A stretch of DNA of 64,000 bases. Source: an uncultured Ruminococcus sp. (GTDB lineage Bacteria > Bacillota > Clostridia > Oscillospirales > CAG-382). The stretch's first letter is position 1. Each line of letters opens with the position of its first letter. The stretch covers positions 3,272 through 67,271 of the forward strand of contig CAZYRT010000001.1 in assembly GCA_964650045.1 (NCBI GenBank), in the 5' to 3' direction. Shown in pieces: positions 9,869-52,451 of the stretch. A program made the position numbers and the translations under genes. A model generated the notes under the pieces. It saw only the letters and a list, made by a program, of their open reading frames with translations. It made no database searches and had not been told where the DNA came from.

Positions 9869-9919
9869 GTTACGCGGAATAGTTCTTTACACACAAGTGA
9901 CTACACCGCGGGAACTAAA
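9869..9919 (-). repeat. 51-nt dispersed repeat (family R2), copy H, reverse orientation
   Basis: The plus strand reads GTTACGCGGAATAGTTCTTTACACACAAGTGACTACACCGCGGGAACTAAA. This is the reverse complement of the R2 pattern TTTAGTTCC..CCGCGT.AG. It abuts the PPTase stop codon. Confidence 0.75.
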
Positions 9920-9920
9920 A

Positions 9921-10469
9921 TCAATCCACTCCGGCAATAGCAAAGATGTAGTTTTCGCAATCGGGGAATTTTATGCTGAACTTTTTAATAGAAACGCCGC
10001 TGACCTTGGAAAGGAAACGGGTATTGTCTACAACCGAGAAAAAGGGAAAATCTGCAAGAGTTTTGCCTGCTGCTTTGATATAAGCTTCCTTGCGAACCCA
10101 TATCTTTGCAAAGTTTTCAAGTTCTTGATCCTTTGCGCTGTCACGCAAAAATTCCGATTCTTCAATAGAAAAGAATTTTTCTGCGATCTGCTGATAATCC
10201 ACCTTATTGTCCTTGGAAAGGATTCGGGGAAGATATTCACCGTCGATACCGATAGGCTTTTCATAAAGAACCGCCATTGTAATATCTTTGGCGCAGGTTA
10301 CAGATAAATGAAGCTTTTTACCTGCATTTTCTACAGTAGGTTTTCCATTGCTGTCGTAATTGATATTGACCTCGTCATTATCAAGATATTTTCTCACAGC
10401 ATTTTGGATATCTTCTCTGCGTTTTCCTTGGTTTTCGTCATATTTAAACATAAAGGTTTTGAGTGCCAT
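9921..10469 (-). CDS. 4'-phosphopantetheinyl transferase (Sfp-type)
   Basis: PIGIDGE and WVRKEAYIKAAG motifs are typical of the PPTase superfamily. The start lies 3 nt after the gyrA stop. Confidence 0.75.
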   Translation of the reverse strand: MALKTFMFKYDENQGKRREDIQNAVRKYLDNDEVNINYDSNGKPTVENAGKKLHLSVTCAKDITMAVLYEKPIGIDGEYLPRILSKDNKVDYQQIAEKFFSIEESEFLRDSAKDQELENFAKIWVRKEAYIKAAGKTLADFPFFSVVDNTRFLSKVSGVSIKKFSIKFPDCENYIFAIAGVD

Positions 10470-10472
10470 TTA

Positions 10473-13016
10473 TTATTCCTCCCCTTCGTTGGGTTCTGTG
10501 GATAGGGTTTCTGTTTCTTCAGCTTGAGCTTCAGTTTCCTCTGCTCTGTCCTCGGCTTCTGTTTCAGGGTCCACCGCCGCAAATCTCGCAACCGATGTAC
10601 CTTCTTCAAGACGCATTACGATAACACCCGATGCGCTTCTGCCGTAAACGGGAATTTCCGAAACACGGGTTCTTATAATAATACCGCCGTCGGTTATGAG
10701 CATGATCTCGTCTGTAGCCTTAACCAAGCGGATGCCTGCCAATTCGCCTGTTTTATCGCTGACACCGTGACAGATCAATCCTCTGCCGCCGCGGTGCTGA
10801 CATTTATATTCACTTGTTATACTGCGCTTGCCATAGCCTTTTTCGGTTATTGTCAATACATAAAGGTCATTCTCATCGTTGCCCTCGGGAATTATTCCTG
10901 CGCCGACAACAAAATCGTCCTCGTCAAGAGTTATCGCTCTTACGCCGCGTGCCTGTCTGCCCATTTCGCGGACATCATCCTCGCTGAAGCGAATGGAAAT
11001 ACCGCGGTTTGTTGCAACCATAATATCATCGTTACCGTGAGAACGCAATACATAAAGCAATGCATCACCTTCATCAAGGTTTATAGCATAAAGACCGTTG
11101 GTACGCTTTGTCTTATAAGCCATAAGATTTATACGCTTAATAACGCCCTTTTGAGTTATAAGCACAAGATTTTCTTCATCGGAAAATTCTTTAACGGGAA
11201 CGATAGCAGTTATCTTTTCATCATTATCAAGAGAAAGAAGGTTAACAAGATTGGTTCCCTTAGCGGTTCTTGTGCTTTCGGGTATTTCAAAGCATTTTTT
11301 TATATAAACTCTTCCTGTATTGGAGAACATAAGAAGGAAATCATGGCTGTGAGAGATAATAACATCCTCAACATAATCTTCTTCTCTTGTTCCCATAGCA
11401 GTTATACCCTTACCGCCGCGGCGCTGAGCCTGATAGGTATCGCTGGGCAATCTCTTAACATAGCCTGCTCTTGTTGCGGTGATAACACAGGTTTCTCTTT
11501 GGATAAGATCCTCGATAAGAATATCGTTTTCGGCTTCTACAATATCGGTTCTTCTTGCATCGCCGTATTTTTCCTTAATAAAATCAAGATCTTCCTTGAT
11601 TATCTGGATGATTCTGCCTTCATCTCCAAGGATTTCCTTAAGGTCCTTAATAAGAGCATAAAGGGCAGCCAATCTGTCCTCGATCTTCTGTCTCTCCATG
11701 CCCGAAAGCTTACCGAGAGTCATGTCCACAATAGCCTGAGCCTGAATATCCGACAATCCGAAGCGTTCCATCAATTTAACTTTAGCATCGGCAATATTCG
11801 CGCTGGCGCGAATAATTGCAATAACCTCGTCAATATAGTCTATTGCAATTTTATATCCTTCATAAATATGAGCCTCATGTTCAGCCTTAGCCAAATCAAA
11901 CTTAACTCTTCTTGTAACAACCTCCTTGCGGTGATTGAGATAATGAGTAAGAATCTCTTTAAGATTCAAAAGCTTTGGAACACCGTTTACAAGGGCAACC
12001 ATATTAACAGCGCAGGTGTCCTGAAGCTGAGTATATTTATAAAGCAGATTAAGAACTATCTGTGCGTTAGCATCCTTCTTGACCTCGATAACGATACGCA
12101 TACCGTCCTTACCCGATTCATTACGGATATCGGAGATGCCTTCTACACGTTTATTCTTAACCAACTCAACCATGCTTTCCAAAAGCATGGAACGGTTTAC
12201 CTGATAAGGAAGCTCGGTTATAATAATACTCGTTCTGCCATGTTTTTCCTCAAAATGAGCCTTTGCGCGGACTCTCACCTTGCCTCGACCCGTCATATAA
12301 GCTTCATAAATTCCCGAGGTTCCATAGATAGTTCCCTTTGTGGGGAAATCGGGACCTTTTATATATTTCATCAAATCAGGAATAGAGCAATCGGGGTTAT
12401 CCATTAAATATTGAGTAGCTTCGATAACCTCACGCATATTATGGGTAGGAATGTTGGTAGCCATACCAACCGCAATACCCACACTTCCGTTTACCAAAAG
12501 GTTGGGAAAACGGGAAGGAAGCACAACAGGCTCCTTACGCATATTATCAAAGTTGGGAACGAAATCGACAACATCCTTTTCGATGTCTGTCATCATTTCG
12601 TCTGCAAGGCGGGACATTCTCGCTTCGGTATAACGGTATGCCGCAGGAGGGTCACCGTCGATATTACCGAAGTTACCGTGTTTATCTATAAGAACATATC
12701 TCAAGGAGAAATCTTGACCTAAACGTACCATTGCATCATAAACAGATGCGTCGCCGTGAGGGTGATAACGACCCAACACGTTACCGACGGTTGTCGCCGA
12801 TTTACGGAAGGGCTTATCATAGGTAAGTCTGTCCTCATACATTGCATAAAGTATTCTTCTGTGAACAGGCTTCATACCGTCGCGTACATCGGGCAAAGCT
12901 CTGCCTACGATAACGCTCATCGCATAGTCGATATAACAGCTTTTTATCTCGTTTTCTATGCCGATATTATGTATAACCTGTTCTTCGTGGTTACTGTAAT
13001 CATATTCGTGTGCCAT
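10473..13016 (-). CDS. gyrA: DNA gyrase subunit A
   Basis: 847 aa. GRALPDVRDGMKPVHRR, HPHGD, and AAYRYTEARM with the active-site Tyr. C-terminal beta-pinwheel repeats and an acidic tail. Confidence 0.97.
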   Translation of the reverse strand: MAHEYDYSNHEEQVIHNIGIENEIKSCYIDYAMSVIVGRALPDVRDGMKPVHRRILYAMYEDRLTYDKPFRKSATTVGNVLGRYHPHGDASVYDAMVRLGQDFSLRYVLIDKHGNFGNIDGDPPAAYRYTEARMSRLADEMMTDIEKDVVDFVPNFDNMRKEPVVLPSRFPNLLVNGSVGIAVGMATNIPTHNMREVIEATQYLMDNPDCSIPDLMKYIKGPDFPTKGTIYGTSGIYEAYMTGRGKVRVRAKAHFEEKHGRTSIIITELPYQVNRSMLLESMVELVKNKRVEGISDIRNESGKDGMRIVIEVKKDANAQIVLNLLYKYTQLQDTCAVNMVALVNGVPKLLNLKEILTHYLNHRKEVVTRRVKFDLAKAEHEAHIYEGYKIAIDYIDEVIAIIRASANIADAKVKLMERFGLSDIQAQAIVDMTLGKLSGMERQKIEDRLAALYALIKDLKEILGDEGRIIQIIKEDLDFIKEKYGDARRTDIVEAENDILIEDLIQRETCVITATRAGYVKRLPSDTYQAQRRGGKGITAMGTREEDYVEDVIISHSHDFLLMFSNTGRVYIKKCFEIPESTRTAKGTNLVNLLSLDNDEKITAIVPVKEFSDEENLVLITQKGVIKRINLMAYKTKRTNGLYAINLDEGDALLYVLRSHGNDDIMVATNRGISIRFSEDDVREMGRQARGVRAITLDEDDFVVGAGIIPEGNDENDLYVLTITEKGYGKRSITSEYKCQHRGGRGLICHGVSDKTGELAGIRLVKATDEIMLITDGGIIIRTRVSEIPVYGRSASGVIVMRLEEGTSVARFAAVDPETEAEDRAEETEAQAEETETLSTEPNEGEE

Positions 13017-13020
13017 ATTT

Positions 13021-13048
13021 TTTCTTAGTTCCGCGATAGAGTAAAACC
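13021..13048 (+). repeat. R2 repeat, partial copy G, abutting the gyrA start codon
   Basis: TTTCTTAGTTCCGCGATAGAGTAAAACC matches the 5' half of R2 (TTTAGTTCCCACGATGTACTCAC). It starts 5 nt from the gyrA ATG. Confidence 0.5.
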
Positions 13049-13140
13049 GTTTTTCACTTTCTTTTCGATTTTACTTCCTCACATTTTCCTCCTTGAATCC
13101 GTTATTTTATAAACCGACTAAAATCAAGCTTTAGCCAATG

Positions 13141-13269
13141 CCTCCCTTGTGTAAAGGGAGGTGGCTCGGCGTGTCCAACCGCCGAGTCGGAGGGATTGTT
13201 TTTTTAATCTTTGAAATACAATCAATCCCTCAGTCAGCTTCGCTGACAGCTCCCTTTACACAAGGGAGC
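13141..13269. repeat. 129-nt composite palindrome made of two inverted double-hairpin modules
   Basis: The left module (13141-13198) is CCTCCCTTGTGTAAAGGGAGG + TGGCTCGGCG..CGCCGAGTCG + GAGGGATTG. The right module (13223-13269) is CAATCCCTC + AGTCAGC..GCTGAC + AGCTCCCTTTACACAAGGGAGC. The spacer is 24 nt and AT-rich. Confidence 0.85.
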
Positions 13270-13305
13270 CATTTATAAGTCGCCTTATACTTCAAAGAAT
13301 TATTA

Positions 13306-13672
13306 CTACTGCAATTGCGCTATCCTAGATTCGATATATTCATCAAGATATTCGCAAACCCCATTGAAATTATTATTAATATTTTCATTAGGAATTCTTA
13401 ATACAACTAAACCATATTGGGATAAAAATTCGGTTCTTATTTCATCATTCTTCATACCTTGCTCGGTATAATGCTGTGAACCATCTAATTCAATCACTAA
13501 TTTTGCTTTCGCACAATAAAAATCTACAATATATTTTCCCAATACCTTTTTGCCGCAAAAATTTTCTAGGATGCAGGCGAAGGAAATCATACCATAAATG
13601 TTTTTCTTCCCTTGTCATGCTTTTTCGCAACATTTTTGCCGTAGGTACTATTGATTTATTATGCTTATTCAT
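13306..13672 (-). pseudogene. DUF559 (Vsr-like endonuclease domain) gene interrupted by a frameshift
   Basis: The N-terminal part MNKHNKSIVPTAKMLRKSMTREEKHLWYDFLRLHPRKFLRQK is in one frame. The C-terminal part VLGKYIVDFYCAKAKLVIELDGSQH...VVLRIPN is in another. The shift maps to the run CAAAAAGG near 13565-13572. Confidence 0.75.
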
Positions 13673-13682
13673 CAAAGGCTTC

Positions 13683-15635
<1,953 letters not shown>

Positions 15636-15678
15636 CTACCGGAAATATTTCGCCGCAATCCTTTCTATATACTGTCAA

Positions 15679-15951
15679 TTATCTTTTCCAAAGAGTCTTA
15701 ATTTCGGTATCAAGGCGTTTTTTTATACTTTCTGTTGAAATACCCGACAGATAAATTCTATCGTCAAATTCACCGTCGCAAACCAAAAAGCTTTTTGGCA
15801 GGTCATTGGAAAGGTTCACAACTCCTCTTTCCTCTTCCTTACGGCGGAACAGATCCTTGGTACCTTGGGAAATACTCGCTGTTTCTATATCAAATATCCC
15901 TATTATTTCCTTTTTATCAATACTTTCGCCTTTTTCTAACTGCAAATACAT
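15679..15951 (-). CDS. DUF370 / RemB-like small protein
   Basis: 90 aa with IIGIFDIET...PKSFLV...IYLSGISTESIKKR. It lies between recF and gyrB, the position of yaaB/remB in Bacillus. Confidence 0.7.
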   Translation of the reverse strand: MYLQLEKGESIDKKEIIGIFDIETASISQGTKDLFRRKEEERGVVNLSNDLPKSFLVCDGEFDDRIYLSGISTESIKKRLDTEIKTLWKR

Positions 15952-16043
15952 ATTATTAATGCCCGCGTTGTACTTTATACAAATTATTACCGCTTCTTCG
16001 CGAGGGTTGTAGCTTTTTAAAATTCAAATTCTTAATCTATTTT

Positions 16044-16108
16044 CAAAAACAGCTTTTGCTGTTTTTGCATTAAAAGTTTTTTCTCAAACTTTTTTAAAAA
16101 AAGTTTGG
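16044..16108. repeat. Double-hairpin repeat (family R1), copy 1, directly after the recF stop
   Basis: CAAAAACAGCTTTTGCTGTTTTTG + GCATTAAAAGTTTTTT + CTCAAACTTTTTTAAAAAAAGTTTGG. Same layout as the copies at 17351 and 18952. Confidence 0.8.
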
Positions 16109-16123
16109 AAAATAACCCAAAAA

Positions 16124-17212
16124 TCACATTTCAGTTACTTCGCCGCTTTTAACGAAGATTCTTTTTCCGTTACCCTTTTCAAAAACTTCGCTTTCACAGC
16201 CTGTTATAATAACCTGTCTATCTGTTATTCTGGACAAAATATAATTTTTTCTGTCCTTATCAAGCTCAGAAAGAATATCATCAAGCAAAAACACGGGATA
16301 CTCTCCTGTCAGCTTTGCCGAAAGTTCACCTTCAGCAAGCTTCAAAGCAAGAACTATGCTTCTCTGCTGACCTTGTGAACCGTACATTTTTGCGCTTTTT
16401 TTATTGATATAAACCAAAAAATCGTCTTTATGGGTACCGTAAACCGAAAGAAACTTTTCCTTTTCGGTCTCCATTTTTTCGGCAAACAGTTTTCGGTAAT
16501 TTTCTCTTATTTCCTCTTGCGTTTCGCCGTTACCGCCCTGAGAAGAATAATTTAAGCTCAATTCCTCTTTACCGTCACTCATATCTAAGAGAAACCTTCT
16601 CGCTTCTTCCTCAAGCCTTGTTATATATTTTTTTCTGTTTACAGTTATTATTGCCGCCAATGTTGCCAAACGTTCATTATAAACCTCTAAAAGCTCATTC
16701 TGAACATTTCCTCTTTTCAAAAGAGCATTTTTCTGAGCAATGATCCTATTATATTCCGACAACGTAGGAGCATATCTCGGGAAGGATTGGCATATTGCCA
16801 AGTCAAGAAAGCGTCTTCTATTTTCGGGAGAACCCTTTACTAAACTTAAATGGTCAGGTGTGAAAATAACAGCCCTGAACTGACCGATATATTCAGCCAA
16901 CCTCAAAGGAGCGCTTTCCCCAAGCTTTATAATCCTTCTGCCGCCCTTTGAAAGTGTGGCAGACATTTTCTTTTTTACATTACCGCTCGTAAACCCGATA
17001 GAAATAAACCCCTTATCGCATCCAAAGGATATAAGCTCTCTATCCTTACAATTTCGAAAGCTTTTTCCTGCGGCAAAGTAAAACACAGCTTCAAGTATAT
17101 TCGTTTTTCCTGCGGCATTGCTGCCGCAAATTACATTAATTCCCTTATCAAACGAAATTTCACTTTCATCTGCGTTTCGGAAATTCTTTAACCACAAACT
17201 TTCAACATACAT
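16124..17212 (-). CDS. recF: DNA replication and repair protein RecF
   Basis: N-terminal Walker A GSNAAGKTNILEA. Signature-like GSQGQQRS. Walker B-like VFLLDD (followed by ILSELD). Confidence 0.93.
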   Translation of the reverse strand: MYVESLWLKNFRNADESEISFDKGINVICGSNAAGKTNILEAVFYFAAGKSFRNCKDRELISFGCDKGFISIGFTSGNVKKKMSATLSKGGRRIIKLGESAPLRLAEYIGQFRAVIFTPDHLSLVKGSPENRRRFLDLAICQSFPRYAPTLSEYNRIIAQKNALLKRGNVQNELLEVYNERLATLAAIITVNRKKYITRLEEEARRFLLDMSDGKEELSLNYSSQGGNGETQEEIRENYRKLFAEKMETEKEKFLSVYGTHKDDFLVYINKKSAKMYGSQGQQRSIVLALKLAEGELSAKLTGEYPVFLLDDILSELDKDRKNYILSRITDRQVIITGCESEVFEKGNGKRIFVKSGEVTEM

Positions 17213-17214
17213 TT

Positions 17215-17265
17215 TTTAGTTCCCACGATGTACTCACTTAAGTGCATACACATATTCCGCGTGAG
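17215..17265 (+). repeat. R2 repeat, copy A, abutting the recF start codon
   Basis: TTTAGTTCCCACGATGTACTCACTTAAGTGCATACACATATTCCGCGTGAG. It begins 3 nt from the recF ATG. Confidence 0.8.
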
Positions 17266-17350
17266 TTTTTGATATAACAGATTACTACTATAGGGGCGTA
17301 CTCACAAAACTTATTTCGTGGGATTTATGGTTAATCACCTGTTTTTACCC

Positions 17351-17415
17351 CAAAAACAGCATTTGCTGTTTTTGCATTTAAAGTTTTTGGCACACCTTTT
17401 CACAAAAAGTTGTGT
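17351..17415. repeat. R1 double-hairpin repeat, copy 2, directly after the dnaN stop
   Basis: CAAAAACAGCATTTGCTGTTTTTG + CATTTAAAGTTTTTGG + CACACCTTTTCACAAAAAGTTGTG. Confidence 0.8.
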
Positions 17416-17426
17416 AAAATCAAAAA

Positions 17427-18545: not shown

Positions 18546-18640
18546 TTTTTCTCTTTACGGTTTTATCAGTTACCGATAAAATAACATGATTTCCGCTTTT
18601 CCTTCCTTAAGTATCTTGTCAATTAGTAAATCTAAAATAG

Positions 18641-18880
18641 GTTTCCACAAGGTTTTCCAAAGCTTTCCACAAAACTTCCACAAATATGGACAACTTTTCT
18701 GTTTTCCACAGCCTGTCCTTTTTGTTTCCACATAAAAATCACGATTTTTAAAAGATTGTTTTTTGTCGAATCCCTTGCAAAACCTGCTTTGTAGGGGATT
18801 TCCACATTTCCACGCCCCCTACTATATACTATTATCACTATTAAATAATATAATCTAATAGTTTTATTTTTTTATTCTCA
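18641..18880. other. oriC core: DnaA-box cluster, GC cluster, AT-rich unwinding region
   Basis: TTTCCACA-type boxes lie on the plus strand at 18641, 18653, 18663, 18674, 18702, 18724, 18798 and 18806, with one inverted box at 18685. A CCCCCT cluster (18815-18820) follows. After it comes a 3-nt-periodic TA-rich run and an AT-rich stretch to about 18880. Confidence 0.75.
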
Positions 18881-18920
18881 CGGCATGCTTACTTGTATGC
18901 GAATACATATTCCGCGTAAG
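18871..18920 (+). repeat. R2 repeat, copy B, between oriC and the dnaA 3' end
   Basis: TTTATTCTCACGGCATGCTTACTTGTATGCGAATACATATTCCGCGTAAG. Confidence 0.75.
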
Positions 18921-18951
18921 AATTAAACATAACGAATTTATAAAATTTTTC

Positions 18952-19017
18952 CAAAAACAGCATTTGCTGTTTTTGAACTTGAAATTTTTGGTCACACCTT
19001 TTTACAAAAAAGTGTGA
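18952..19017. repeat. R1 double-hairpin repeat, copy 3, directly after the dnaA stop
   Basis: CAAAAACAGCATTTGCTGTTTTTG + AACTTGAAATTTTTGG + TCACACCTTTTTACAAAAAAGTGTGA. Confidence 0.8.
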
Positions 19018-19028
19018 AAATTATTAAA

Positions 19029-25747: not shown

Positions 25748-27562
25748 ATGAAAAAGTGGAATTTTTATACTACTAATGAAATCAAACCCTCGGGATGGAT
25801 CAAAAGACAGCTTGAAATTCAAGCAGAGGGCTTGAACGGTAACCTTGATAAAGTTTGGCGCGATGTTCGCGACAGTAAATGGATCGGCGGAGATGCCGAA
25901 GGCTGGGAAAGAGTTCCCTATTGGTTGGATGGATTTATTCCTCTTGCTTATCTTCTTGAAAACGAGGATATGATCGCAAGAGCAAAGAAATATATCGATG
26001 CTATCATTTCCTTCCAAAAGCCCGATGGCTGGCTTTGCCCCTGTGATGACGATAAGAGGGCAACCTATGATACCTGGGCGGTTCTTCTTCTTTCCAAGGT
26101 TTTGACAGTTTATTACGAATGCTCCAAGGATGAAAAGATTCCCGATGTTCTCTATCGCACTCTTAAAAATTATTATGATCTTCTCGTAAAGGGTGAGGTA
26201 AAGCTTTTTGATTGGGGTAAATACCGTTGGTATGAAGGCTTTATTGCAATCGATTTCCTTTACAAGAGATATAACGAGGAATGGCTCCTTGATTTGGCAA
26301 AGCTTCTCAAAGCTCAGGGTATGGATTACAATACAGTTATAGACCAATGGAAGCGTCCTCTTAATAAATGGACTTTCGATACTCACATCGTTAACCTTGT
26401 TATGACAATGAAGCATGAGGCTGTTTCCTGTGACCTTCTCGGTCAGGAATACACAGACGATGCGGAAAAGCTTGTTTCTGTTCTCGAACGTTACAACGGT
26501 ATGCCTGTCGGTATGTTCACAGGTGACGAATGCCTTTCCGGTCTTTCTCCCATTCAGGGCGCAGAGCTTTGTTCTGTTGTTGAATTGATGTATTGCTATG
26601 AAATCCTTTATGCATACACAGGTGACAGAAAATGGGCAGAACGCTTGGAATTGCTTGCATTTAACGCTCTTCCTGCAACAATAAGCGATGATATGTGGGC
26701 GCACCAATACGGTCAGATGTCCAACCAGATCGCTTGTATCCGCTTCCCCGGCAAGTCTATTTTCCGTACAAACAACAGCGAAGCTCACATGTTCGGTCTT
26801 GAGCCTAACTTCGGCTGCTGTACCGCAAACTTTGGTCAAGGCTGGCCCAAGCTTACCCTTTCCACCTTCATGCACAACGGCAACACAGTTATCAGCGCAG
26901 TTCCGGTTCCCTCTGTTCTTAATGCTGACGGAAAGAATATCAAGCTTGAAACAAATTATCCCTTCGAAAACAGCTTCAAATACACAATCAATGCCGAAAA
27001 TCCCTTTGAATTTAAGGTTCGTGTTCCTTCCTTTGCAAAGAATCTTACAGTAAACGGTGCTTCTGCTGACGGCGAAATGCTTTCCTTCGATATTTCCGCA
27101 GGCGAAACTGTTATTGAAATCAGCTTTGATGTTAAGCCCTATTTTGAAAAGCGTCCTTATGATTTGAACACAGTTAAATGCGGTTCTCTTGCCTTTGCGG
27201 TTAATATCGGCTATGAGCCTAAAATGCGTGAATATGAAGCAGACGGAATCGAAAGAAAGTTCCCCTACTGCGACTATGAATATTATCCCACAACAGATGA
27301 ATGGAATTATGCATATTGCGGCGATACCGAGCTTGTTGTGGAAAGAAGAGAAATTTCGGATATTCCTTTCTCCTCCAAGAATCCTCCTGTTGTTGTAAAA
27401 GCGGGTGTTAAGAAGATTTCTTGGGGCTTGCAGGACGGTTACGAAACCGTTTGCGCTAAGGTTCCCGAATCCAGAACCCCCGTTTCCGATGAAAAGGTTA
27501 TCGAGCTTTATCCCTATGGCTGTGCTAAGCTCAGAATGACCGAGCTTCCCTTCACCGTTTGA
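25748..27562 (+). CDS. DUF1680 / GH127-like beta-L-arabinofuranosidase family protein
   Basis: 604 aa. The N-terminus ...GWIKRQLEIQAEGLNGNLDKVW...GWERVPYWLDG and a Cys-rich CCTANFGQGWPK segment recall the GH127 family. From memory, not searched. Confidence 0.55.
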   Translation: MKKWNFYTTNEIKPSGWIKRQLEIQAEGLNGNLDKVWRDVRDSKWIGGDAEGWERVPYWLDGFIPLAYLLENEDMIARAKKYIDAIISFQKPDGWLCPCDDDKRATYDTWAVLLLSKVLTVYYECSKDEKIPDVLYRTLKNYYDLLVKGEVKLFDWGKYRWYEGFIAIDFLYKRYNEEWLLDLAKLLKAQGMDYNTVIDQWKRPLNKWTFDTHIVNLVMTMKHEAVSCDLLGQEYTDDAEKLVSVLERYNGMPVGMFTGDECLSGLSPIQGAELCSVVELMYCYEILYAYTGDRKWAERLELLAFNALPATISDDMWAHQYGQMSNQIACIRFPGKSIFRTNNSEAHMFGLEPNFGCCTANFGQGWPKLTLSTFMHNGNTVISAVPVPSVLNADGKNIKLETNYPFENSFKYTINAENPFEFKVRVPSFAKNLTVNGASADGEMLSFDISAGETVIEISFDVKPYFEKRPYDLNTVKCGSLAFAVNIGYEPKMREYEADGIERKFPYCDYEYYPTTDEWNYAYCGDTELVVERREISDIPFSSKNPPVVVKAGVKKISWGLQDGYETVCAKVPESRTPVSDEKVIELYPYGCAKLRMTELPFTV

Positions 27563-27614
27563 TTTAGCTCCCGCGGCGTACTCGACTCAAACTGCAAGCA
27601 CTCATCCGCGTGAG
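27563..27614 (+). repeat. R2-related repeat, copy E (E/F subfamily), in the 3' UTR
   Basis: TTTAGCTCCCGCGGCGTACTCGACTCAAACTGCAAGCACTCATCCGCGTGAG begins right after the stop codon. Its downstream tail ATGTAGTTTATTAAATCAAAATA parallels copy F. Confidence 0.65.
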
Positions 27615-27661
27615 ATGTAGTTTATTAAATCAAAATAAATACCATTCCTATAAAGATATTG

Positions 27662-27697: not shown

Positions 27698-27748
27698 AAT
27701 CTATAAGCACAAACATTTTTTGTATTATACAACATAAAATAAATGCCA

Positions 27749-27858
27749 AGTGATATTCTTTGTTACGCAAAGAGTGATATTTTCTTACGAAATGATATTA
27801 CTCCCTTTGGTCGTAGTGATATTTTATTCGCCTTATATACCTGCGAAGCAATATCACT
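27749..27858. repeat. AGTGATAT-plus-hairpin array downstream of tpiA
   Basis: AGTGATAT at 27749, 27773 and 27815, AATGATAT at 27791, and an inverted ATATCACT at 27851. Spacing is 18-24 nt. Each spacer holds a different short palindrome, for example CTTTG..CAAAG. Confidence 0.8.
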
Positions 27859-39651: not shown

Positions 39652-39688
39652 GATAATCAACTCCTCATTTTAATTTATTATCATGTTC

Positions 39689-39717: not shown

Positions 39718-39724
39718 TCCTTTT

Positions 39725-39777
39725 TTTAGTTCCTGCAATGTACTAACCAATATGCATTACACATATTCCGCGAGTGG
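39725..39777 (+). repeat. R2 repeat, copy C
   Basis: TTTAGTTCCTGCAATGTACTAACCAATATGCATTACACATATTCCGCGAGTGG. Confidence 0.75.
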
Positions 39778-39863
39778 ATTAAAGACAACAAGCCTCTTAC
39801 CCATACATTTGAAAATTTACCGATTCGCGTAGTAAGGTTTAATAAAAAATTTTGATTAGGGTA

Positions 39864-40943: not shown

Positions 40944-40949
40944 TCACCG

Positions 40950-41922: not shown

Positions 41923-44298
41923 ATGAGTGAATTCAAGAATATTTTATCTGCCTTAAATGGCGAAGGACGTCCCTTGGTTGTTGACGGTGCAATGGGAACC
42001 ATGCTTCAGAGTATGGGATTAAAGCCGGGTGCTCTTACCGAAACCATGAATACTCTTGACCCATCTTCGGTTATGGCGGTACACAAAGCATATATCGAGT
42101 CAGGCGCCGATATTATTACCACAAACAGTTTCAGTTCTAACAGCGTGAAGCTTTCTCCCTATAGAATGAACCCGAGGGAAGAAATGTTAAAGGCGGTTAA
42201 AATAGCCAAGGAAGCGGCAGGCTATGGTCAAAGAAAGGTTTTTGTGGCAGCGGATCTTGGGCCCACGGGCAAATTGATGCCTCCCTTGGGAGATTTTGAA
42301 TTTGAGGATGCGGTAAATGCATTTAAGCCTGCTGTGGCTGCTGCCGAAGAAGCAGGGGCGGATTTGGTATTTTTCGAAACCTTTTCCGACCTTTATGAGT
42401 GTAAGGCGGCGGTTATTGCCGCAAGAGAGGTTTCCTCCCTTCCTGTTGCGGTTTCATTGACCTTTGACGAAAGCGGAAGAACTCTAACAGGAGCCGATGC
42501 AGAAACAGCGGCTATCTATCTTTCCCGTTTGGGTGTAGATGCTATCGGTATAAATTGCGGCTTAGGCCCCGATGCTATGGAGCCTATAGCCATAGCGTTA
42601 GCAAAATTCAGCGGACTTCCTGTTATAGTAAACGCAAATGCAGGTCTGCCCAAAATAAATGAAAACGGAGAAACTTACTTTGATGTAAGCCCCGAAAGAT
42701 TCCTAAGCTTTGCCAAAAAGCTTGGAGAAAACGGAATCAGATGTATCGGCGGATGCTGCGGTACAACCCCCGAATATATCGAACAGGTTGCTAAGGGTGT
42801 AAATAATTGTGATTATAAAAAGGTATCATCAACAGAAAAGCGAGTTTCGGTTTGCTCGGGCACAAGAATGTTCACCTTTGGTGGAAAAACTGCGGTTATC
42901 GGTGAAAGACTTAATCCTACGGGCAAATCCAAATTAAAAGAGGCTTTGCGTACCGGCGACATGGATTATCTTTGTGCCGAGGCTGTTTCTCAGCAGGGGG
43001 CAGGTGCGGATATTCTTGACGTTAATGTTGGTATTCCCGAAATAAATGAGGTAGAAATGCTTCCTAAGGCTGTTTTGGCGATACAAAAGGTAACCGACCT
43101 TCCTCTCCAATTGGATTCTGCCGACCCCGATGCATTGGAAGCTGCGGCGAGAGTTTACAACGGTATTCCTATAATCAATTCGGTTAACGGAAAAAAAGAA
43201 AACCTTCAAAAGGTGCTTCCCATAGTTAAAAAATACGGCGCAGTTTGCGTTGGTCTGCTTTTGGATGAGGAGGGAATCCCCGATTCGCCTAAAGAAAGAT
43301 TGGAAATTGCCGAAAAAATAAGAGAAACCGCGGAAAATGATTTTTCGTTCACTCCCGATTTTCTCTTTGATGCTCTGACCTTAACGGTTGCCACCGATGA
43401 AAAAAGCGGTGAAAAAACCCTCGAATGTGTAGAAAGCCTTTCGAATCAAGGCTTTATGACGGTTTTGGGCGTTTCCAATATTTCCTTTGGTATGCCGAAC
43501 CGCGATGCTATTAATGCTTCATTCCTCGGTGCGGCTATGTCGAGAGGGCTTTCGGCGGCGATTATCAATCCTTCCAGCGAAAACATGAGGCTGGTAATTA
43601 ACGACCCTTCGCCAAATCCGGATTTTGTTTTCTCTAATGAGCCTGCCGAAGCGGTTCAATCTGTATCTGAAAAAAAGGAAATGACGCTTTTTGATGCCGT
43701 TTATTCGGGACTTTCCAAAAAATCGGCAGAATGCGCAAAAGTTCTTCTTTCCCAGTTCAAGCCCTTGGAGGTTATTGAAAATCATCTTGTGCCTGCATTA
43801 AATGCTTTGGGCGAGGATTATGAGGCGAAAAAGCTGTTCCTTCCCCGACTTTTGGGCGGTGCCGAAGCGGCAAAAGCAGCATTTAAGGTTATAAATGAAT
43901 CTCTTTCGGGTGAAAAGACCCAAAAGGGTATGAAGATAGTTATAGCAACAGTAAAGGGCGATATCCATGATATCGGAAAAAATATTGTGGCAACGCTTCT
44001 TTCCAATTACGGCTTCGATGTTATTGACTTGGGCAAGGATGTTGCCCCTCAGGCAATCGTTGATGCCGCAATAGCAAACAACGCGAAAATCGTTGGCTTG
44101 AGCGCATTGATGACAACTACAGTTCCTGCAATGGCAGAAACTATCAAGCTTATTAAAGAGCAATGCCACGAGGTTAAAACAATGGTAGGCGGCGCGGTTC
44201 TTACTCAGGACTATGCTGACACAATGGGCGCAGATTTCTATGGCGTTGACGCAATGGCATCTGTCCGCTACGCTCTTTCTTTAATTCCCGCGATGTAG
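41923..44298 (+). CDS. metH: Cobalamin-dependent methionine synthase (Hcy, pterin and B12 domains; no activation domain)
   Basis: Hcy S-methyltransferase GGCCGTTPE. Pterin-binding region. B12 motif GDIHDIGKNIV. Ends after the B12 domain at 791 aa. Confidence 0.9.
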   Translation: MSEFKNILSALNGEGRPLVVDGAMGTMLQSMGLKPGALTETMNTLDPSSVMAVHKAYIESGADIITTNSFSSNSVKLSPYRMNPREEMLKAVKIAKEAAGYGQRKVFVAADLGPTGKLMPPLGDFEFEDAVNAFKPAVAAAEEAGADLVFFETFSDLYECKAAVIAAREVSSLPVAVSLTFDESGRTLTGADAETAAIYLSRLGVDAIGINCGLGPDAMEPIAIALAKFSGLPVIVNANAGLPKINENGETYFDVSPERFLSFAKKLGENGIRCIGGCCGTTPEYIEQVAKGVNNCDYKKVSSTEKRVSVCSGTRMFTFGGKTAVIGERLNPTGKSKLKEALRTGDMDYLCAEAVSQQGAGADILDVNVGIPEINEVEMLPKAVLAIQKVTDLPLQLDSADPDALEAAARVYNGIPIINSVNGKKENLQKVLPIVKKYGAVCVGLLLDEEGIPDSPKERLEIAEKIRETAENDFSFTPDFLFDALTLTVATDEKSGEKTLECVESLSNQGFMTVLGVSNISFGMPNRDAINASFLGAAMSRGLSAAIINPSSENMRLVINDPSPNPDFVFSNEPAEAVQSVSEKKEMTLFDAVYSGLSKKSAECAKVLLSQFKPLEVIENHLVPALNALGEDYEAKKLFLPRLLGGAEAAKAAFKVINESLSGEKTQKGMKIVIATVKGDIHDIGKNIVATLLSNYGFDVIDLGKDVAPQAIVDAAIANNAKIVGLSALMTTTVPAMAETIKLIKEQCHEVKTMVGGAVLTQDYADTMGADFYGVDAMASVRYALSLIPAM

Positions 44299-44331
44299 TT
44301 TGTTCAAATTGTTATCGCTCATTCGCGTGAG
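44281..44331 (+). repeat. R2-related repeat, copy F (E/F subfamily), overlapping the metH stop
   Basis: TTAATTCCCGCGATGTAG...CGCTCATTCGCGTGAG. It is flanked by the direct repeats TGTAGTTTGTTCAAATTG and TGTAGTTTGCTCAAATCG. Confidence 0.6.
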
Positions 44332-44376
44332 CTGTAGTTTGCTCAAATCGAAAATATTACATCTTTACAACACAAA

Positions 44377-44402
44377 AAGACCATCGGTTTTCCGATGGTC
44401 TT
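44377..44402. terminator. Bidirectional terminator (metH / paralog 2)
   Basis: AAGACCATCGG-TTTT-CCGATGGTCTT is a perfect 11-bp stem flanked by A and T runs. Confidence 0.85.
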
Positions 44403-49904: not shown

Positions 49905-50020
49905 TACAAATCTGGCGTCTTATTTTTGTGTAATGTTCACAAAAAAACACAGAATCATTGACATAAAGAAATAAATTTTGTATAATGTACGAAGAAAAAT
50001 ACAATAAGGAGAAAAGTTTA

Positions 50021-52345
50021 ATGAAAATCACCAAAAGATTTCTTGCTCTTGGTCTGGTCGTTCTTATGCTGTTTTCAACATGTGTGGTTGCTAATGCAGC
50101 AAGCGGAAGCGCTACCTTGACCAAGGGAAGCACCTACACTATCGACAATGCAGTGTACTATTCTACTTATACTGTAAAAGGTACAAGTGCAAGTACAACT
50201 GCTCACGTTCTTGAATTTAATCCCGATGACGGTTATGTTCCCATGGCGTTCACCGGCGCGGCAGGTGACGTTCTTTCCGTTTCCGAGCAATATGCTGCGG
50301 CTGTTGCTCAGGGTTATGAGGTTGCAGGCGTTATCAACGGTTCCTTCTTTGATATGAACCGCGGTTCCTTGAACCAGGTTTTGATCAGTGAAGGAAGATT
50401 GATTTCCGCTGATATAAGCAATAGCGTAGGCGAAGTTGCTACCTTTGACACAGAAGGTAACATGGGTCACGGCTATAGCGTTCTTCATTTCGATATAACC
50501 TTTAACGGCACAACAGTTAAGGATTCCCTTGTTTCGGTTAACAAGAGATATCAATATATTGCCAATGCAAGCTCAACAAAGAGTTACACAGATCGTTTCT
50601 TCTATTATGACAGCAAGGTTGGAAGCGATGGATATTACGGCTTCACCAGCACCTCTGCAAACGGCTACGAAATTCTTTGTGAAAAGCTTGATTATACCGA
50701 AATCGCTGTAGGCAAGACCTTGAAGGCAAAGGTTATCAGCGTAAGCTCCGGCAGAAATTACGGTACCACAATTCCCACAAGCGATAATCAGTTTGTTCTT
50801 TTTGTAAAGAGCAGCTCTTCTTATGCATCCTATGCATCCAGCCTTTCCGCAGGCGCCTCTATCACCGTTTATTCCTACGAATCCAGCTCTACTCAGGCGA
50901 TGAACGATGCATATTCCACAATGAGTTCTGCTTATTACCTTGTTCAGAACGGTGTTGACAAATGTGCATCTTCTTCAAGCATCGGCGGACACAGCGTTAA
51001 CAGCTATGGAAGACCTTGGACTGCATTCGGTCAAAAGGCAGACGGTTCTTTTGTATATTTCATTTCCACAGGCGAAAAGATCGACCTTGCGGATGTTTCT
51101 GCAGCTATGATAAAGCTTGGCTGTGTAAATGTTATCCGTCTTGACGGCGGCGGATCCACCGCTATGTATGTAAACGGCAAGGGCTCTGTTTACACTCAGG
51201 GCAGAGATGTTGCCGATGCTCTTCTTATCGTAAAGAAATCCAGCCTTGAAGATACCGCTCTTACTGCAAAATTGGAAGAATCTGTTGCTCTTGCAAAGAC
51301 AATTTCCAATCCTACTGCTGAAATTTCCGCGGCAATCACCGAAGCTGACGCAGTTTTGGCAAACGCTTATCCTGCAAAGGGTCTTGTTAAGGTAGCTCTT
51401 TCCAAGGTTAACAACAAGGCAATACTTGGCAATCTTATTTCTCAGGCACAATCCGAATCCTCCTCTCACTATTCTACTGAGGATTACGCGACACTTCAAA
51501 CTGCTATCACCAACGGTAACAGTGTTTTGAATAATTCAAGTGCTACCGATGCACAAGTTTCTTCTGCTATCACTCAGCTTACTTCTGCTCTTGAGCTTTC
51601 CAATTATAATATGCTTTCCACAGGCAAATCCTACACAGTAGGCGGAGCAACAGCTTACACCGCTGATACAACCGATGACGGTGTGCGTTTGACAGACGGT
51701 GCTAAATGCAGTCTTGATCCCTTGACTTCTGATTATTCTGCATGGAAAGGCAATTATATTGATGACGGCGCAGGCGGAAAATATCAGACAATCACCGTTG
51801 ATTTGGGCGAATCCACCGTTTCCAATGTTTACAAGATCTATATGGCAAGCAACTTCTGGGGTGTTTCCGCTTCCGGATTCGTAAGTGTTTGGGGTTGTAA
51901 CACCAAAGACGGCACTTATACTCTTATCGGTTACGATGAAAGTCTTGAACAGGAAGCATCAGGTGTTTGTGCTTCTGTAGATAATTCCACAGTTATATCC
52001 TCTTCTATGACTATCTCCAGCGAAACAGCGCAGAATTACCGTTATATCAGATTCAATGTTTACCCCGGCGGATCCTTCCTTTGGGTAGATGAAGTTGAAG
52101 TAATTCGTGACGATTCTCTCCTTCCCGAAGAAGAACCTGCTCCTGCAACAGGCGTGGGCGACGTAAACAATGACGGCAAATTGACCGCGACCGACTATTT
52201 GATGCTCAAGAAAGTGGTTATGGACGTTATTTCCGTCAGCTCCTTGAAGGACCCCGACAACGCGTTTGCACGCTGTGACTATAACGGCGACGGCAAATTG
52301 ACCGCTATCGACTACTTCATGCTTAAAAAGGCTATGTTTGCATAA
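50021..52345 (+). CDS. Surface protein paralog 3: phosphodiester glycosidase-like, FIVAR-like, discoidin-like domain, type I dockerin
   Basis: ATG 50021 after AAGGAG. Signal peptide. VINGSFF and IRLDGGGSTAMY. YRYIRFNVYPGGSFLWVDEVE. Dockerin GDVNNDGKLTATDYLMLKK...CDYNGDGKLTAIDYFMLKK. Confidence 0.65.
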   Translation: MKITKRFLALGLVVLMLFSTCVVANAASGSATLTKGSTYTIDNAVYYSTYTVKGTSASTTAHVLEFNPDDGYVPMAFTGAAGDVLSVSEQYAAAVAQGYEVAGVINGSFFDMNRGSLNQVLISEGRLISADISNSVGEVATFDTEGNMGHGYSVLHFDITFNGTTVKDSLVSVNKRYQYIANASSTKSYTDRFFYYDSKVGSDGYYGFTSTSANGYEILCEKLDYTEIAVGKTLKAKVISVSSGRNYGTTIPTSDNQFVLFVKSSSSYASYASSLSAGASITVYSYESSSTQAMNDAYSTMSSAYYLVQNGVDKCASSSSIGGHSVNSYGRPWTAFGQKADGSFVYFISTGEKIDLADVSAAMIKLGCVNVIRLDGGGSTAMYVNGKGSVYTQGRDVADALLIVKKSSLEDTALTAKLEESVALAKTISNPTAEISAAITEADAVLANAYPAKGLVKVALSKVNNKAILGNLISQAQSESSSHYSTEDYATLQTAITNGNSVLNNSSATDAQVSSAITQLTSALELSNYNMLSTGKSYTVGGATAYTADTTDDGVRLTDGAKCSLDPLTSDYSAWKGNYIDDGAGGKYQTITVDLGESTVSNVYKIYMASNFWGVSASGFVSVWGCNTKDGTYTLIGYDESLEQEASGVCASVDNSTVISSSMTISSETAQNYRYIRFNVYPGGSFLWVDEVEVIRDDSLLPEEEPAPATGVGDVNNDGKLTATDYLMLKKVVMDVISVSSLKDPDNAFARCDYNGDGKLTAIDYFMLKKAMFA

Positions 52346-52365
52346 AAGTTAAACATCCAATAAGA

Positions 52366-52395
52366 AAGACCATCGGTTGCCCGATGGTCTTTTTG
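52366..52395 (+). terminator. Terminator of paralog 3
   Basis: AAGACCATCGG-TTGC-CCGATGGTCTT followed by TTTT. The stem is identical to the 44377 terminator. Confidence 0.85.
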
Positions 52396-52400
52396 TGTGA

Positions 52401-52451
52401 TTTAGTCCTCTCGGTGTGCTTACTTATAAGCAAATAAATATTCCGCGTGGG
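52401..52451 (+). repeat. R2 repeat, copy D
   Basis: TTTAGTCCTCTCGGTGTGCTTACTTATAAGCAAATAAATATTCCGCGTGGG. Confidence 0.75.

Follow-up and report, generated by a model that had tools for sequence, protein, structure and literature searches.

The repeats described here, which we call R2, probably represent a new, narrowly distributed family of non-coding mosaic elements, comparable to BOX, BIME and REP, that colonised the intergenic DNA of sister species. R2 is a genuine multicopy family, with eight copies in the window, by which we mean the whole 64-kb stretch of DNA analyzed. Two relatives at ~90% nucleotide identity, the MAG JAZSFY01 and the ENA contig L025, hold 43 further copies. An earlier note had picked out seven clear copies (A to F and H), and a repeat search of the window recovered every one of them at the same coordinates. 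The check that the note proposed, an HMM scan set against shuffled sequence, bore this out: a profile HMM built from the seven scored 50 to 63 bits per copy, none of 20 Markov shuffles of the window exceeded 8.9 bits, and further copies came to light. A degenerate R2 pattern matched four copies where 0.00 were expected. The eighth copy, G, lay outside the training set of the HMM, which found it at 15956-16026 on the minus strand (25.9 bits, E 4e-7). A covariance model gave 38 to 85 bits across all eight.

Anatomy of the Element

The note had put the length of R2 at ~51 nt. The true length is ~75 nt, conservation extending 5' on the minus strand. Read on that strand, each element consists of at least one X unit of 39 nt (ATTTGAATAAACTAC-GACTCTCGCGAATGAGCGGTAACA) followed by a terminal Y unit of ~33 nt (ATTTGAATAAACTAC-AT-CGCGGGAACTAAAA, with CTAC before the AT). 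There are two subfamilies. Copies A, B, C, D and H form subfamily I, known from this genome only; E and F, rightly recognized in the note as a sister group, are joined by G in subfamily II, which is common to this genome and the two relatives. The two CGCG-containing segments, 34 to 35 nt apart, and their spacing are kept in both subfamilies, and the loop between them is replaced.

The build of R2 is modular. Up to three X units stand in tandem (L013) and two or three Y units likewise, with solo Y tandems at a spacing of 16 to 20 nt; tandem arrays occur in L010, L008, L005, L004 and L019, and the MAG ortholog of copy C has a perfect 16-nt duplication. Other modules accompany R2, always arranged and oriented alike: D2 comes first, Z and then (CCTATTA)n follow, and R2 closes the series. 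D2 is a double A/T-flanked hairpin on the 5' side, and a co-oriented R2 follows 10 out of 10 D2 modules at a distance of -3 to 98 nt. Z modules, which lie between R2 units, are REP-like GC hairpins that end in CTAC and carry compensatory changes.

Does R2 itself fold? An 8-bp stem can be drawn (UCUCGCGR with YCGCGGGA) around a loop of ~30 nt that differs between the subfamilies. The cells of this stem are paired in 87.5% of cases, against 28 to 55% with the partner columns slid, and one of the eight pairs covaries (Fisher p = 0.03). Because the covariation rests on one base pair and CGCG is self-complementary, we treat the stem as possible only. RNAalifold gave -4.85 kcal/mol. The element strand has a mean fold z of -1.55 versus -0.73 for the opposite strand, and the stem contains U-G pairs that would become A-C mismatches on the complementary strand. 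The compensatory change that the note saw between copies A and B turns out to be ambiguous, since one 5' segment pairs with two 3' segments and copies C and D break the stem. Rfam returned no match to R2, either at the gathering score or at E <= 1.

A hairpin followed by ACUAAAA, with AACUAC on its 5' side, recalls the direct repeats of type VI CRISPR systems, and Cas13d systems originate from Ruminococcus and Eubacterium. Might R2 copies be solitary CRISPR-repeat-like units, acting as mimics or regulators? The likeness was to the Cas13a repeat GATTTAGACTACCCCAAAAACGAAGGGGACTAAAAC, a repeat confirmed in the literature (e.g. PMC10864651). Local alignment of R2 to three hand-picked type VI repeats was, however, not above shuffles (p = 0.03-0.43), the conserved terminal C is absent, the sequences between tandem copies are themselves repeats rather than unique spacers, no cas genes occurred in 183 kb, and none of the CRISPR-DR families in Rfam matched. 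R2 has the makings of neither a CRISPR array nor a solitary CRISPR repeat, and we consider this explanation extremely unlikely.

A relic or live micro-ORF in subfamily I, of the form M-F-K/N-T/S-H/Y-A-E-Y-V/L-F-A-Y-K-stop, strikes us as every bit as hard to believe. The in-frame peptides that the note read in A, B and D are there, in an open frame ending AEY(V/L)(Y/F)A(L/Y)K-stop, and in B and D an ATG lies in the same frame, 13 codons before the stop. But A has ATA in place of that ATG, the frame closes early in C (AEYV-stop) and H (YAE-stop) and is not kept in subfamily II, an SD-like patch occurs in D only, and the variable sites among A, B and D divide 3:3:4 over codon positions 1, 2 and 3, with no excess at the third.

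The Copies and Their Surroundings

R2-H (9847..9926, plus strand, subfamily I; 54.2 bits with the HMM, 41.9 with the covariance model) is antisense to the minus-strand genes on either side of it, and its 3' end (..GGGAACTAAAA) falls 1 nt short of the stop codon of an ACPS gene (9921-10469, minus strand). The remaining copies are all on the minus strand. R2-G (15948..16024, subfamily II; HMM E 4e-7, covariance model 74.5 bits), which the note did not have, ends in ..CGCGGGCATTAATAAT and abuts, within 4 nt, the ATG of a remB-like gene (15679-15951, minus strand); it has positional orthologs in the MAG (L015a, 88% identical) and in L025. A double hairpin of the D2 type, terminator-like, sits 3 nt upstream of it and just past the recF stop codon (16029..16112, minus strand). 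R2-A (17208..17283, subfamily I; HMM 63.3 bits, and found by the covariance model) ends in ..CGTGGGAACTAAAAA directly before the recF ATG at 17212, as the note had said. Fifty nucleotides upstream is the second D2 double hairpin, just past the dnaN stop codon (17337..17419, minus strand). At the recF site the relatives have a subfamily II copy where the window has R2-A.

R2-B (18863..18938, subfamily I; HMM 53.6 bits, and covariance model) lies past the dnaA stop codon and short of oriC, with a conserved AT-rich stretch and a cluster of DnaA boxes adjoining its 3' end. Directly upstream is the third D2 double hairpin, just past the dnaA stop codon (18940..19020, minus strand) and called terminator-like in the consensus scan. 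L025 has two subfamily II copies with the same end point at this boundary.

The copies farther along, each found by both the HMM and the covariance model, have quite different neighbors. R2-E (27556..27632, subfamily II) is in the convergent spacer between tpiA on the minus strand and a GH127 gene on the plus strand; in plus-strand reading it starts 1 nt past the GH127 stop codon (TGA-TTTAGCTCCCGCGG), and its ortholog in the MAG (L010c) is 78% identical and is accompanied there by two further copies. R2-C (39718..39794, subfamily I) is immediately upstream of a conserved TTGACA-17-TATAAT promoter of an NAGPA gene (37303-39660, minus strand), a site where the MAG combines a subfamily II copy with a large expansion of modules. 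R2-F (44273..44349, subfamily II), again in a convergent spacer, overlaps the metH stop codon, as claimed: its 3' end covers the TAA at 44296-44298. Its MAG ortholog, L016b, is 96% identical. R2-D (52394..52469, subfamily I) is in a convergent spacer and is itself followed by the terminator hairpin of the gene at 49985-52345. In the MAG, this spacer holds an oppositely oriented R2 that supplies the TAG stop codon of a Cthe_2159-like gene.

Start Codons of Replication Genes

The two readings offered in the note were a REP- or MITE-like element, which holds in the broad sense of a dispersed intergenic repeat, and a leader RNA, which does not. On the latter reading recF, gyrA, gyrB and dnaN would have a cis-regulatory leader in common, R2, which would co-regulate their translation and supply their ribosome-binding sites. 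There is something to be said for it: R2-A and R2-G end right at the recF and remB start codons, an R2-type 3' end precedes both of these in three genomes, and A-rich contexts of the form ..AAAAAATG recur at the five replication genes. Yet recF and remB are the only two genes whose start codons are abutted by R2. The copies that had been proposed at gyrB (15612-15656) and dnaN (18546-18598) match neither the full HMM, nor an HMM of the 3' unit, nor the covariance model. At gyrA, a possible decayed 3' unit (..TATCGCGGAACTAAGAAAAAAT-ATG; 13017..13059, minus strand) is the best non-member match of the covariance model, at 13.5 bits and E ~1.9; it cannot be separated from chance, the 3'-unit HMM giving 3.9 bits there versus 6 to 12 bits in shuffles, and is at most an undetectable R2 relic. 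The 5' region of gyrB is ~100% identical to its ortholog in the MAG, which marks it as a leader or promoter conserved in its own right, in contrast to the R2 repeats, which change fast.

Nor is the repeat a conserved source of Shine-Dalgarno sequences, as the note had it. The MAG has ~105 nt of other modules from R2 to the recF ATG and reads ..CGCGCTTTAAAAAAATG before that codon, with no SD-like patch. Orientation with respect to the downstream gene is random (20 copies same, 24 opposite; two-sided p = 0.65), so that 24 of 44 point away from it. R2-C sits ahead of its gene's promoter; the placement of D, E, F and H is convergent or antisense. The genes flanking R2 are unrelated in function, those in the relatives including GH3, Dxs, FtsK, Obg, Asd, a sigma factor and a response regulator. 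The outgroups have the dnaN-recF-remB-gyrB-gyrA genes and lack any such sequence. What we found, in short, is neither one position and orientation at a defined set of genes across species nor a structure backed by covariation or a match to a curated family, and we rate a leader RNA as very unlikely.

Placement, Turnover and Possible Constraint

R2 behaves as intergenic filler and not as a gene-linked signal. ORFs make up 87% of the sequence, yet 45 of the 47 copies fall between genes (p = 3e-38). A gene boundary falls within 10 nt of the 3' end in 14 of the 47 and within the same distance of the 5' end in one. Turnover, judged by comparing sites between genomes, is fast. At sites A, B and C the relatives hold the other subfamily, and positional orthologs are 53 to 57% identical; subfamily I copies inside this genome are 70 to 78% identical to each other. 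Orthologous spacers differ in copy number, and at site D the orientation is inverted between the window and the MAG.

Some copies are different. Orthologs of R2-F are 96% identical and those of R2-G 88%, versus 69% at nearby four-fold degenerate sites (p = 1e-6 and p = 1e-3, respectively), which hints at constraint, and hence function, on at least some of them. In addition, the MAG has 27 exact pattern matches, of which six fall in the region syntenic to the 64-kb window (p ~1e-4), and such clustering is not expected from purely random spread.

These observations bear on two readings that give R2 a job. In the first, R2 would be a domesticated recognition element, CNCGCGR-(34/35 nt)-YCGCGGGAAYTAAAA, to which a host protein or nuclease binds, either in the DNA or in a hairpin of the RNA; it would mark gene boundaries or organize the origin-proximal chromosome, with solo Y units as extra binding sites. 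The constraint on F and G and the origin-proximal matches in the MAG speak for it, as do the retention of the CGCG segments and their spacing while the loop is replaced, the tandem occurrence of solo Y units, the stronger folding of the element strand with its U-G pairs, and a 3' boundary that stays fixed at recF, remB and the AT-rich region of oriC while the 5' content changes. Against this, close outgroups have the same genes and no R2, so it cannot be an essential conserved system. Orientation and neighboring genes are random, copy number at orthologous sites varies freely, a spacing of 34 to 35 nt does not correspond to whole helical turns, no protein emerged as a candidate binder, and the apparent enrichment near the origin comes from one fragmented MAG. 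We think such a role unlikely. The second reading, which we also doubt, and slightly more so, is that R2 is more than junk-like repeat DNA: a young domesticated gene-boundary element, made of a bipartite CGCG hairpin or recognition site plus an A-rich tail and concentrated around oriC, which a host factor reads to set mRNA ends or translation starts. One copy abuts the AT-rich unwinding region at oriC; subfamilies would be swapped by gene conversion with the boundary position kept. If true, this would be an unusually clear and datable takeover of a repeat family for a chromosome-wide function in a few sister species.

Spread Through a Few Sister Species

How might a mosaic repeat, the explanation that we prefer, have come to fill so many spacers? 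Locally, units would multiply by slippage or by being duplicated in tandem. New spacers may have been reached, and resident copies overwritten, through ectopic recombination or through gene conversion that takes hold at the conserved ends; alternatively, some enzyme could act in trans on the R2 hairpin. Gene boundaries rich in A/T would be where the A-rich 3' end comes to rest. On one strand it would then lead into start codons (recF, remB); on the other, where it reads TTTTAG or TTAA, it would come right after the stop codon of a convergent gene or provide that codon. Whatever R2 does to the host would be secondary and local: it might place a hairpin in a UTR (5' or 3'), provide a stop codon or change the spacing on the upstream side of a promoter.

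We found no transposase, integrase or Y1/RAYT-like gene in the 183 kb examined, using Pfam scans of 46 repeat-adjacent MAG ORFs and 17 window ORFs and, for RAYT, tblastn with an IS200 TnpA sequence. The first 20 nt of the consensus match the reverse-complemented last 20 nt at 7 to 8 of 20 positions, so there are no terminal inverted repeats. Target-site duplications were not seen either: the longest word common to the two flanks has a mean length of 3.64 nt versus 3.69 +/- 0.11 in mismatched pairs, a comparison in which short duplications could be missed, the 5' boundary being uncertain. With neither hallmark present, transposition is no more than a candidate route, and the same goes for spread by recombination only.

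The MAG has at least 38 copies in 119 kb of loci and L025 has five, which score 56 to 82 bits and were outside the training set of the model. Of 185,579 species genomes (GTDB), one carries R2, and phages, plasmids, viral contigs and JGI metagenomes gave no match. The outgroups L031 and L032, at ~75% nucleotide identity, have neither R2 nor D2, and their dnaN-recF spacers are 3 to 9 nt long. The family is thus derived and lineage-specific, having spread recently among a small set of sister species, uncultured Clostridia of the gut or rumen. The dnaA-gyrA cluster, normally compact, is among the places where R2 has filled the spacers.

Relation to Known Repeats

BOX elements of Streptococcus pneumoniae are intergenic, multicopy repeats of the form boxA-boxB(n)-boxC, the outer parts of which can pair into a stem-loop; they are found in a narrow group of related species and do not have a transposase of their own. 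R2 resembles BOX in architecture. It too is intergenic and narrow in host range, has short modules in fixed order with variable tandem internal units (X one to three times, then Y one to three times, the pattern of a BOX- or BIME-type mosaic), has outer parts able to pair, and shows no transposase of its own in the 183 kb. It differs in its shorter units (39 and ~33 nt), its link to a separate D2 double hairpin, and its sharp A-rich 3' end against start or stop codons. Homology to BOX sequences is unlikely given the host and the composition.

The STAR elements of Staphylococcus aureus are short GC-rich direct repeats in AT-rich intergenic DNA, with a copy number that varies between strains. 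R2 shares with them short GC-rich repeats, here CGCGGGAAC, at short intervals, but differs from them in sequence and in having a defined architecture of two units with the potential to pair. Like MITEs (Correia/NEMIS, RUP), R2 is a small, non-autonomous intergenic repeat that overlaps gene ends and could alter expression of its neighbors; unlike them, it is without terminal inverted repeats, target-site duplications or any related IS that we could find.

With REP and BIME, R2 has in common that it is extragenic and reaches a high copy number (at least 38 in the MAG loci, where REPs run to tens or hundreds), in tandem or mixed clusters with flanking DNA. The ends of REPs often supply the stop codon of a neighboring ORF, as described for the GTAG-tagged REP superfamily (Di Nocera et al. 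2013, PMC3733652), and R2 does the same via TTTTAG or TTAA. Firmicutes and Clostridia occur 0 times in the text of that study. At ~75 nt, with an 8-bp stem around a ~30-nt loop, R2 does not form the tight palindrome of 20 to 40 nt typical of a REP; its CTAC words (GTAG on the other strand), conserved twice, beside the arms and in the loop, are internal and not terminal; and the 183 kb yielded no RAYT gene. In the strict sense, then, R2 is neither a REP nor a MITE, having the defining features of neither. The Z module, by comparison, does form such a tight palindrome and fits the REP description: on the other strand it reads GTAG and then a GC-rich palindrome, with compensatory changes.

The repeat and its modules

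R2, the dispersed intergenic repeat family with copies A to H in the window, is real. The copies listed in the earlier note were recovered by a repeat search of the window, and a profile HMM built from seven of them scores 50-63 bits on each, against a best score of 8.9 bits in 20 Markov shuffles of the window. A further copy, G (15956-16026, minus strand), lay outside the HMM training set and was found at 25.9 bits (E 4e-7). A degenerate pattern covering both subfamilies of the repeat matched four copies in the window where 0.00 were expected, and all eight score 38-85 bits with a covariance model. Conservation continues 5′ of the 51 nt first assigned to the repeat, so that the full unit is ~75 nt.

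Relatives, among them the metagenome-assembled genome (MAG) Eubacteriales bacterium JAZSFY01, show R2 to be built from units: a terminal Y (ATTTGAATAAACTAC-AT-CGCGGGAACTAAAA) is preceded by at least one 39-nt X (ATTTGAATAAACTAC-GACTCTCGCGAATGAGCGGTAACA). There are three tandem X units on locus L013, and two or three tandem Y units on L010, L008, L005 and L013; the MAG ortholog of copy C carries a perfect 16-nt duplication. R2 is joined to other modules in fixed order and orientation. In 10/10 cases D2, a double A/T-flanked hairpin, precedes a co-oriented R2 lying -3 to 98 nt away. Z modules, GC hairpins ending CTAC (n = 15 in relatives), show a compensatory change from GGGCGGAG/CCCCGCCC to GGGAGGAG/CCCCTCCC; the window has no intact Z, only a degenerate trace at ~17285-17300. 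Runs of (CCTATTA)n are also found among the linked modules.

D2 is itself a family of ~85 nt, with compensatory changes in the stems of its two A/T-flanked hairpins and variable tetraloops. Its copies in the window, all on the minus strand, directly follow the stop codons of recF (16029-16112), dnaN (17337-17419) and dnaA (18940-19020). At these junctions R2 always comes next, and in the more distant relative L028 D2 is inverted there. Z reads CGGG(C/A)GGAG-CAAG-CCCC(G/T)CCC-CTAC, so that its other strand is GTAG and then a GC palindrome; in relatives its copies sit between R2 units (L008, L010, L025 and other loci).

Two subfamilies can be told apart. Subfamily I (A, B, C, D and H) is found only in the window, with ~70% mutual identity and 55% identity to MAG copies. 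Subfamily II (~76% mutual identity) comprises E, F, G and every copy of the relatives. The two have in common a pair of CGCG-containing segments spaced 34-35 nt apart and the 3′ tail, and differ in the loop and the 5′ flank.

Sequences upstream of three gyrase and clamp genes, which the earlier note had counted as related, fared less well. Those of gyrB and dnaN match neither the HMM, a 3′-unit HMM nor the covariance model. The gyrB 5′ region is ~100% identical to its MAG ortholog and, judged on that identity, is a distinct conserved leader or promoter, unlike the fast-changing R2. Upstream of gyrA, 13017-13059 is the top match among non-members but not significant (13.5 bits, E ~1.9, covariance model), and with the 3′-unit model it scores 3.9 bits, below the shuffle maxima of 6-12 bits. 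The corresponding sequence in L025, a second R2-bearing relative, has CGCGG and then, 35 nt on from start to start, CGCGGAACTAAGAG. This spacing is R2-like, with a score of only 11 bits, and a decayed R2 relic is possible upstream of gyrA.

The gyrB 5′ region (15612-15700, minus strand) is more conserved against the MAG than coding sequence is. It shares TAATTGACA..AAGGA..GCGGAAAT with the dnaN 5′ region (18546-18625, minus strand), and the two may contain a common promoter or operator.

A narrow distribution

A scan of one genome per species (185,579 species) with the pattern CGCGRAN{21,26}TACNNCGYGGGARYTAAA returned 27 matches on 22 contigs, all from the single MAG JAZSFY01, and one more elsewhere. 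That one, in a yak-rumen MAG, is put down to chance: its genome has 56% GC, it escapes the HMM, and we estimate that ~6 chance matches are to be expected. A pattern search of JGI metagenomes gave no match. Neither did a search of viral contigs, phages and plasmids, and an origin from any of these was rejected. Rfam has no match on R2 at E <= 1, its sole gathering-score match being a TPP riboswitch elsewhere, and the idea of a known RNA family was rejected on that search.

The MAG is 84-94% identical to the window in nucleotide sequence across syntenic blocks, and its loci hold 38 HMM-detectable R2 copies in 119 kb. L025 and the outgroups L031 and L032/L033 were found by a RecF homolog search with contig look-ups. 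L025, whose RecF is 98% identical as protein and ~90% as nucleotide sequence, has five strong R2 copies (56-82 bits). The outgroups, at ~73-77% nucleotide identity, lack both R2 and D2 entirely and have compact junctions, with 3 and 9 nt from the dnaN stop to the recF start. Therefore the R2 cassettes are, on this comparison of sequences, recent insertions in a narrow subclade and not an ancestral leader. In L028/L029 (RecF 81%), the same junctions have D2-like hairpins in the opposite orientation and (GATAATA)n, with no R2.

Short-read contigs tend to end at an R2 copy or ~100-300 nt from one, as at the end of L034 (from Logan SRR14307658) and at the ends of many MAG contigs (L009, L014, L017, L020, L023).

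Turnover and possible constraint

Orthologous spacers keep their outer boundaries and differ in the interior. At recF, at the candidate replication origin (oriC) and at site C, subfamily I in the window stands opposite subfamily II in L025 and the MAG, and these positional orthologs are 53-57% identical, versus 70-78% among subfamily I copies within the window genome. Numbers change too: on the oriC side, where the window has a single copy, L025 has two; at site E the MAG has three to the window's one; and the MAG has two extra modules upstream of recF. At site D, the MAG copy is inverted relative to that in the window.

Same-subfamily copies have been kept at G (88% identical), F (96%) and E (78%), against 59-84% identity at four-fold degenerate sites in nearby genes. 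Conservation exceeds that of four-fold sites at F (p = 1e-6) and G (p = 1e-3) and does not at E. Some copies may therefore be under constraint, which is the chief argument against taking the family as purely neutral. Six of the 27 exact MAG matches lie in the region syntenic to the 64-kb window (p ~1e-4, for a 2-3.5 Mb genome); the clustering could mean a true preference for the origin region or be an accident of the MAG's fragmentation.

Gene boundaries

Almost all R2 copies (45/47) are intergenic, in sequence that a crude gene call makes 87% ORF (p = 3e-38). The earlier note had raised the possibility of a leader RNA shared by the replication and repair genes. Co-oriented copies do lead with their 3′ end into a start codon at recF, at the RemA-like small gene that we call remB, and in two MAG cases. 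Relative to the downstream gene, though, 20 copies have the same orientation and 24 the opposite (p = 0.65), and the flanking genes are diverse (GH3, Dxs, SIR2, LytTR, a sigma factor, FtsK, Obg, Asd and an OmpR-type regulator, among others); transposase, integrase and cas genes are absent from them. On orientation, neighboring genes and outgroups, we reject the shared leader.

What R2 does have is polarity. Its A-rich 3′ end falls <=10 nt from a gene boundary in 14/47 copies, its 5′ end in 1/47. The other strand of an opposed copy reads [stop]TTTTAG-TTCCCGCG or TTAATTCCCGCG and so follows, or supplies, a stop codon; E, F and H in the window and ~8 MAG copies are such cases. At site D, R2 contains the TTT-TAG end of the MAG gene, whereas the window gene ends TTT-TAA without it. 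GTAG-type REPs have been reported to supply stop codons (PMC3733652), a trait that R2 has in common with them. Copies D, E and F lie in convergent spacers, H is antisense between two genes, and C sits just upstream of a conserved TTGACA-17-TATAAT promoter.

One R2 pair on L013 (1028-1104 and 4401-4477), 93% identical and inverted with A-rich ends outward, flanks 3.3 kb between a kinase gene and dnaJ. A phage replisome-organiser-like protein, a dockerin/LRR protein and an HTH regulator are encoded there, possibly on an islet with R2 at its borders. The interval was discounted as an autonomous element, no transposase being encoded in the 3.3 kb.

Folding and coding potential

RNAalifold finds only a long-range stem in R2, at -4.85 kcal/mol. 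Pairing of the 8-bp stem UCUCGCGR / YCGCGGGA holds in 87.5% of cells, versus 28-55% with the partner columns slid, and covariation is limited to one pair (AU 16, GC 13; Fisher p = 0.03). Because the core CGCG is self-complementary, direct and inverted repetition are inseparable in R2. R2 folds modestly, and more strongly on the element strand (mean z -1.55 vs -0.73), which fits the U-G pairs of the stem, these being mismatches on the complementary strand. The compensatory change seen earlier between A and B is real, but ambiguous as to structure, as the 5′ segment pairs with either of two 3′ segments; copies D and C break the stem proposed from it.

Nor does the reading frame noticed in some copies support a micro-ORF: A has no start codon, the frame ends early in C and H and is not kept in subfamily II, and there is no third-position bias. 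No consensus promoter lies inside R2 or D2, and only the second D2 hairpin resembles a terminator. Two likenesses were dropped: R2 resembles type VI CRISPR repeats no more than shuffled controls do, and the likeness of the subfamily II loop to cre or the lac operator, judged by eye, covers only one half-site and is put down to coincidence.

A familiar class of repeat

The best-supported reading takes R2 for a mosaic repeat of the BOX/BIME/REP kind, young and specific to its lineage. The REP/MITE-like reading offered at first thus stands in its broad sense and fails in its specific ones. R2 lacks the terminal inverted repeats and target-site duplications of a MITE, and its palindrome is both too weak and too long for a classical REP; it is the associated Z module that resembles a GTAG REP. 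No RAYT gene was found in 183 kb by a weak IS200/RAYT screen and by Pfam scans. The finding is real, but it adds a member to a known class. Local expansion would proceed by slippage, and spread or overwriting by ectopic recombination on the conserved ends or by some enzyme acting on the hairpin. Effects on genes would be local only, through UTR hairpins, stop codons and the spacing at starts and promoters.

Repeats dispersed between genes, familiar from Proteobacteria and streptococci, have barely been described in gut and rumen Clostridia. R2 is young and datable, being absent at ~75% identity and present at ~90% with different subfamilies at the same sites, and this youth and swapping make it a convenient system for asking how repeats invade even the most compact, conserved cluster, dnaA-dnaN-recF-gyrB-gyrA, how stop codons and start-adjacent sequence arise from them, and how they turn over. 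There are practical matters too. With many copies at contig ends, R2 appears to disrupt short-read assemblies of these organisms, and beside start codons it could mislead the annotation of leaders and ribosome-binding sites.

The genomic setting

The window has 41% GC. On its minus strand are dnaA (19029-20375), dnaN (17427-18545), recF (16124-17212), remB (15679-15951), gyrB (13683-15611) and gyrA (10473-13016), with rnpA, yidC and jag on the opposite side of dnaA. DnaA-box-like words are grouped at 18640-18810 and the cumulative GC skew has its minimum at ~20 kb; oriC is probably between dnaA and dnaN. The candidate (18640-18862) combines an AT-rich stretch, nearly identical in L025, with six or more TGTGGAAA DnaA-box-like words. 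Copy B ends exactly at this stretch, and the boundary between the two is conserved in L025.

The gyrB-gyrA spacer (13017-13682) measures 666 nt in the window and only 296 nt in L025; it holds a frameshifted DUF559 pseudogene (~13300-13660) and a long GC-rich inverted repeat (~13120-13275). The TPP riboswitch (8510-8611, plus strand, 62.2 bits) is upstream of a YuaJ-type thiamine transporter gene (8698-9285). In the pgk-tpiA spacer (28825-28900, minus strand) there is a match resembling Gut-1 RNA (RF01706) at 42.2 bits, under the gathering score of 50, with E 3.7e-7 computed in a 351-nt search; the orthologous MAG place has one too (L010 88-163, 37.8 bits). At 27740-27900, in the tpiA-GH127 spacer, the word AATATCAC is present ~5 times; this spacer has no MAG counterpart, and the MAG has D2-R2-Z arrays there.

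Exact protein look-ups found copies of the window's proteins only on two short Logan contigs of SRR14307658. Several genes of the window have dockerin domains, and therefore the host is probably a fibre-degrading member of Clostridia. Three NAGPA (phosphodiester glycosidase) paralogs lie at 37303-39660, 44419-46743 and 49985-52345, with a dockerin detected in the second and third. They come with a 195-nt, 89% inverted repeat (44419-44613 / 52151-52345) and near-identical terminator hairpins (44370-44402 / 52366-52398).
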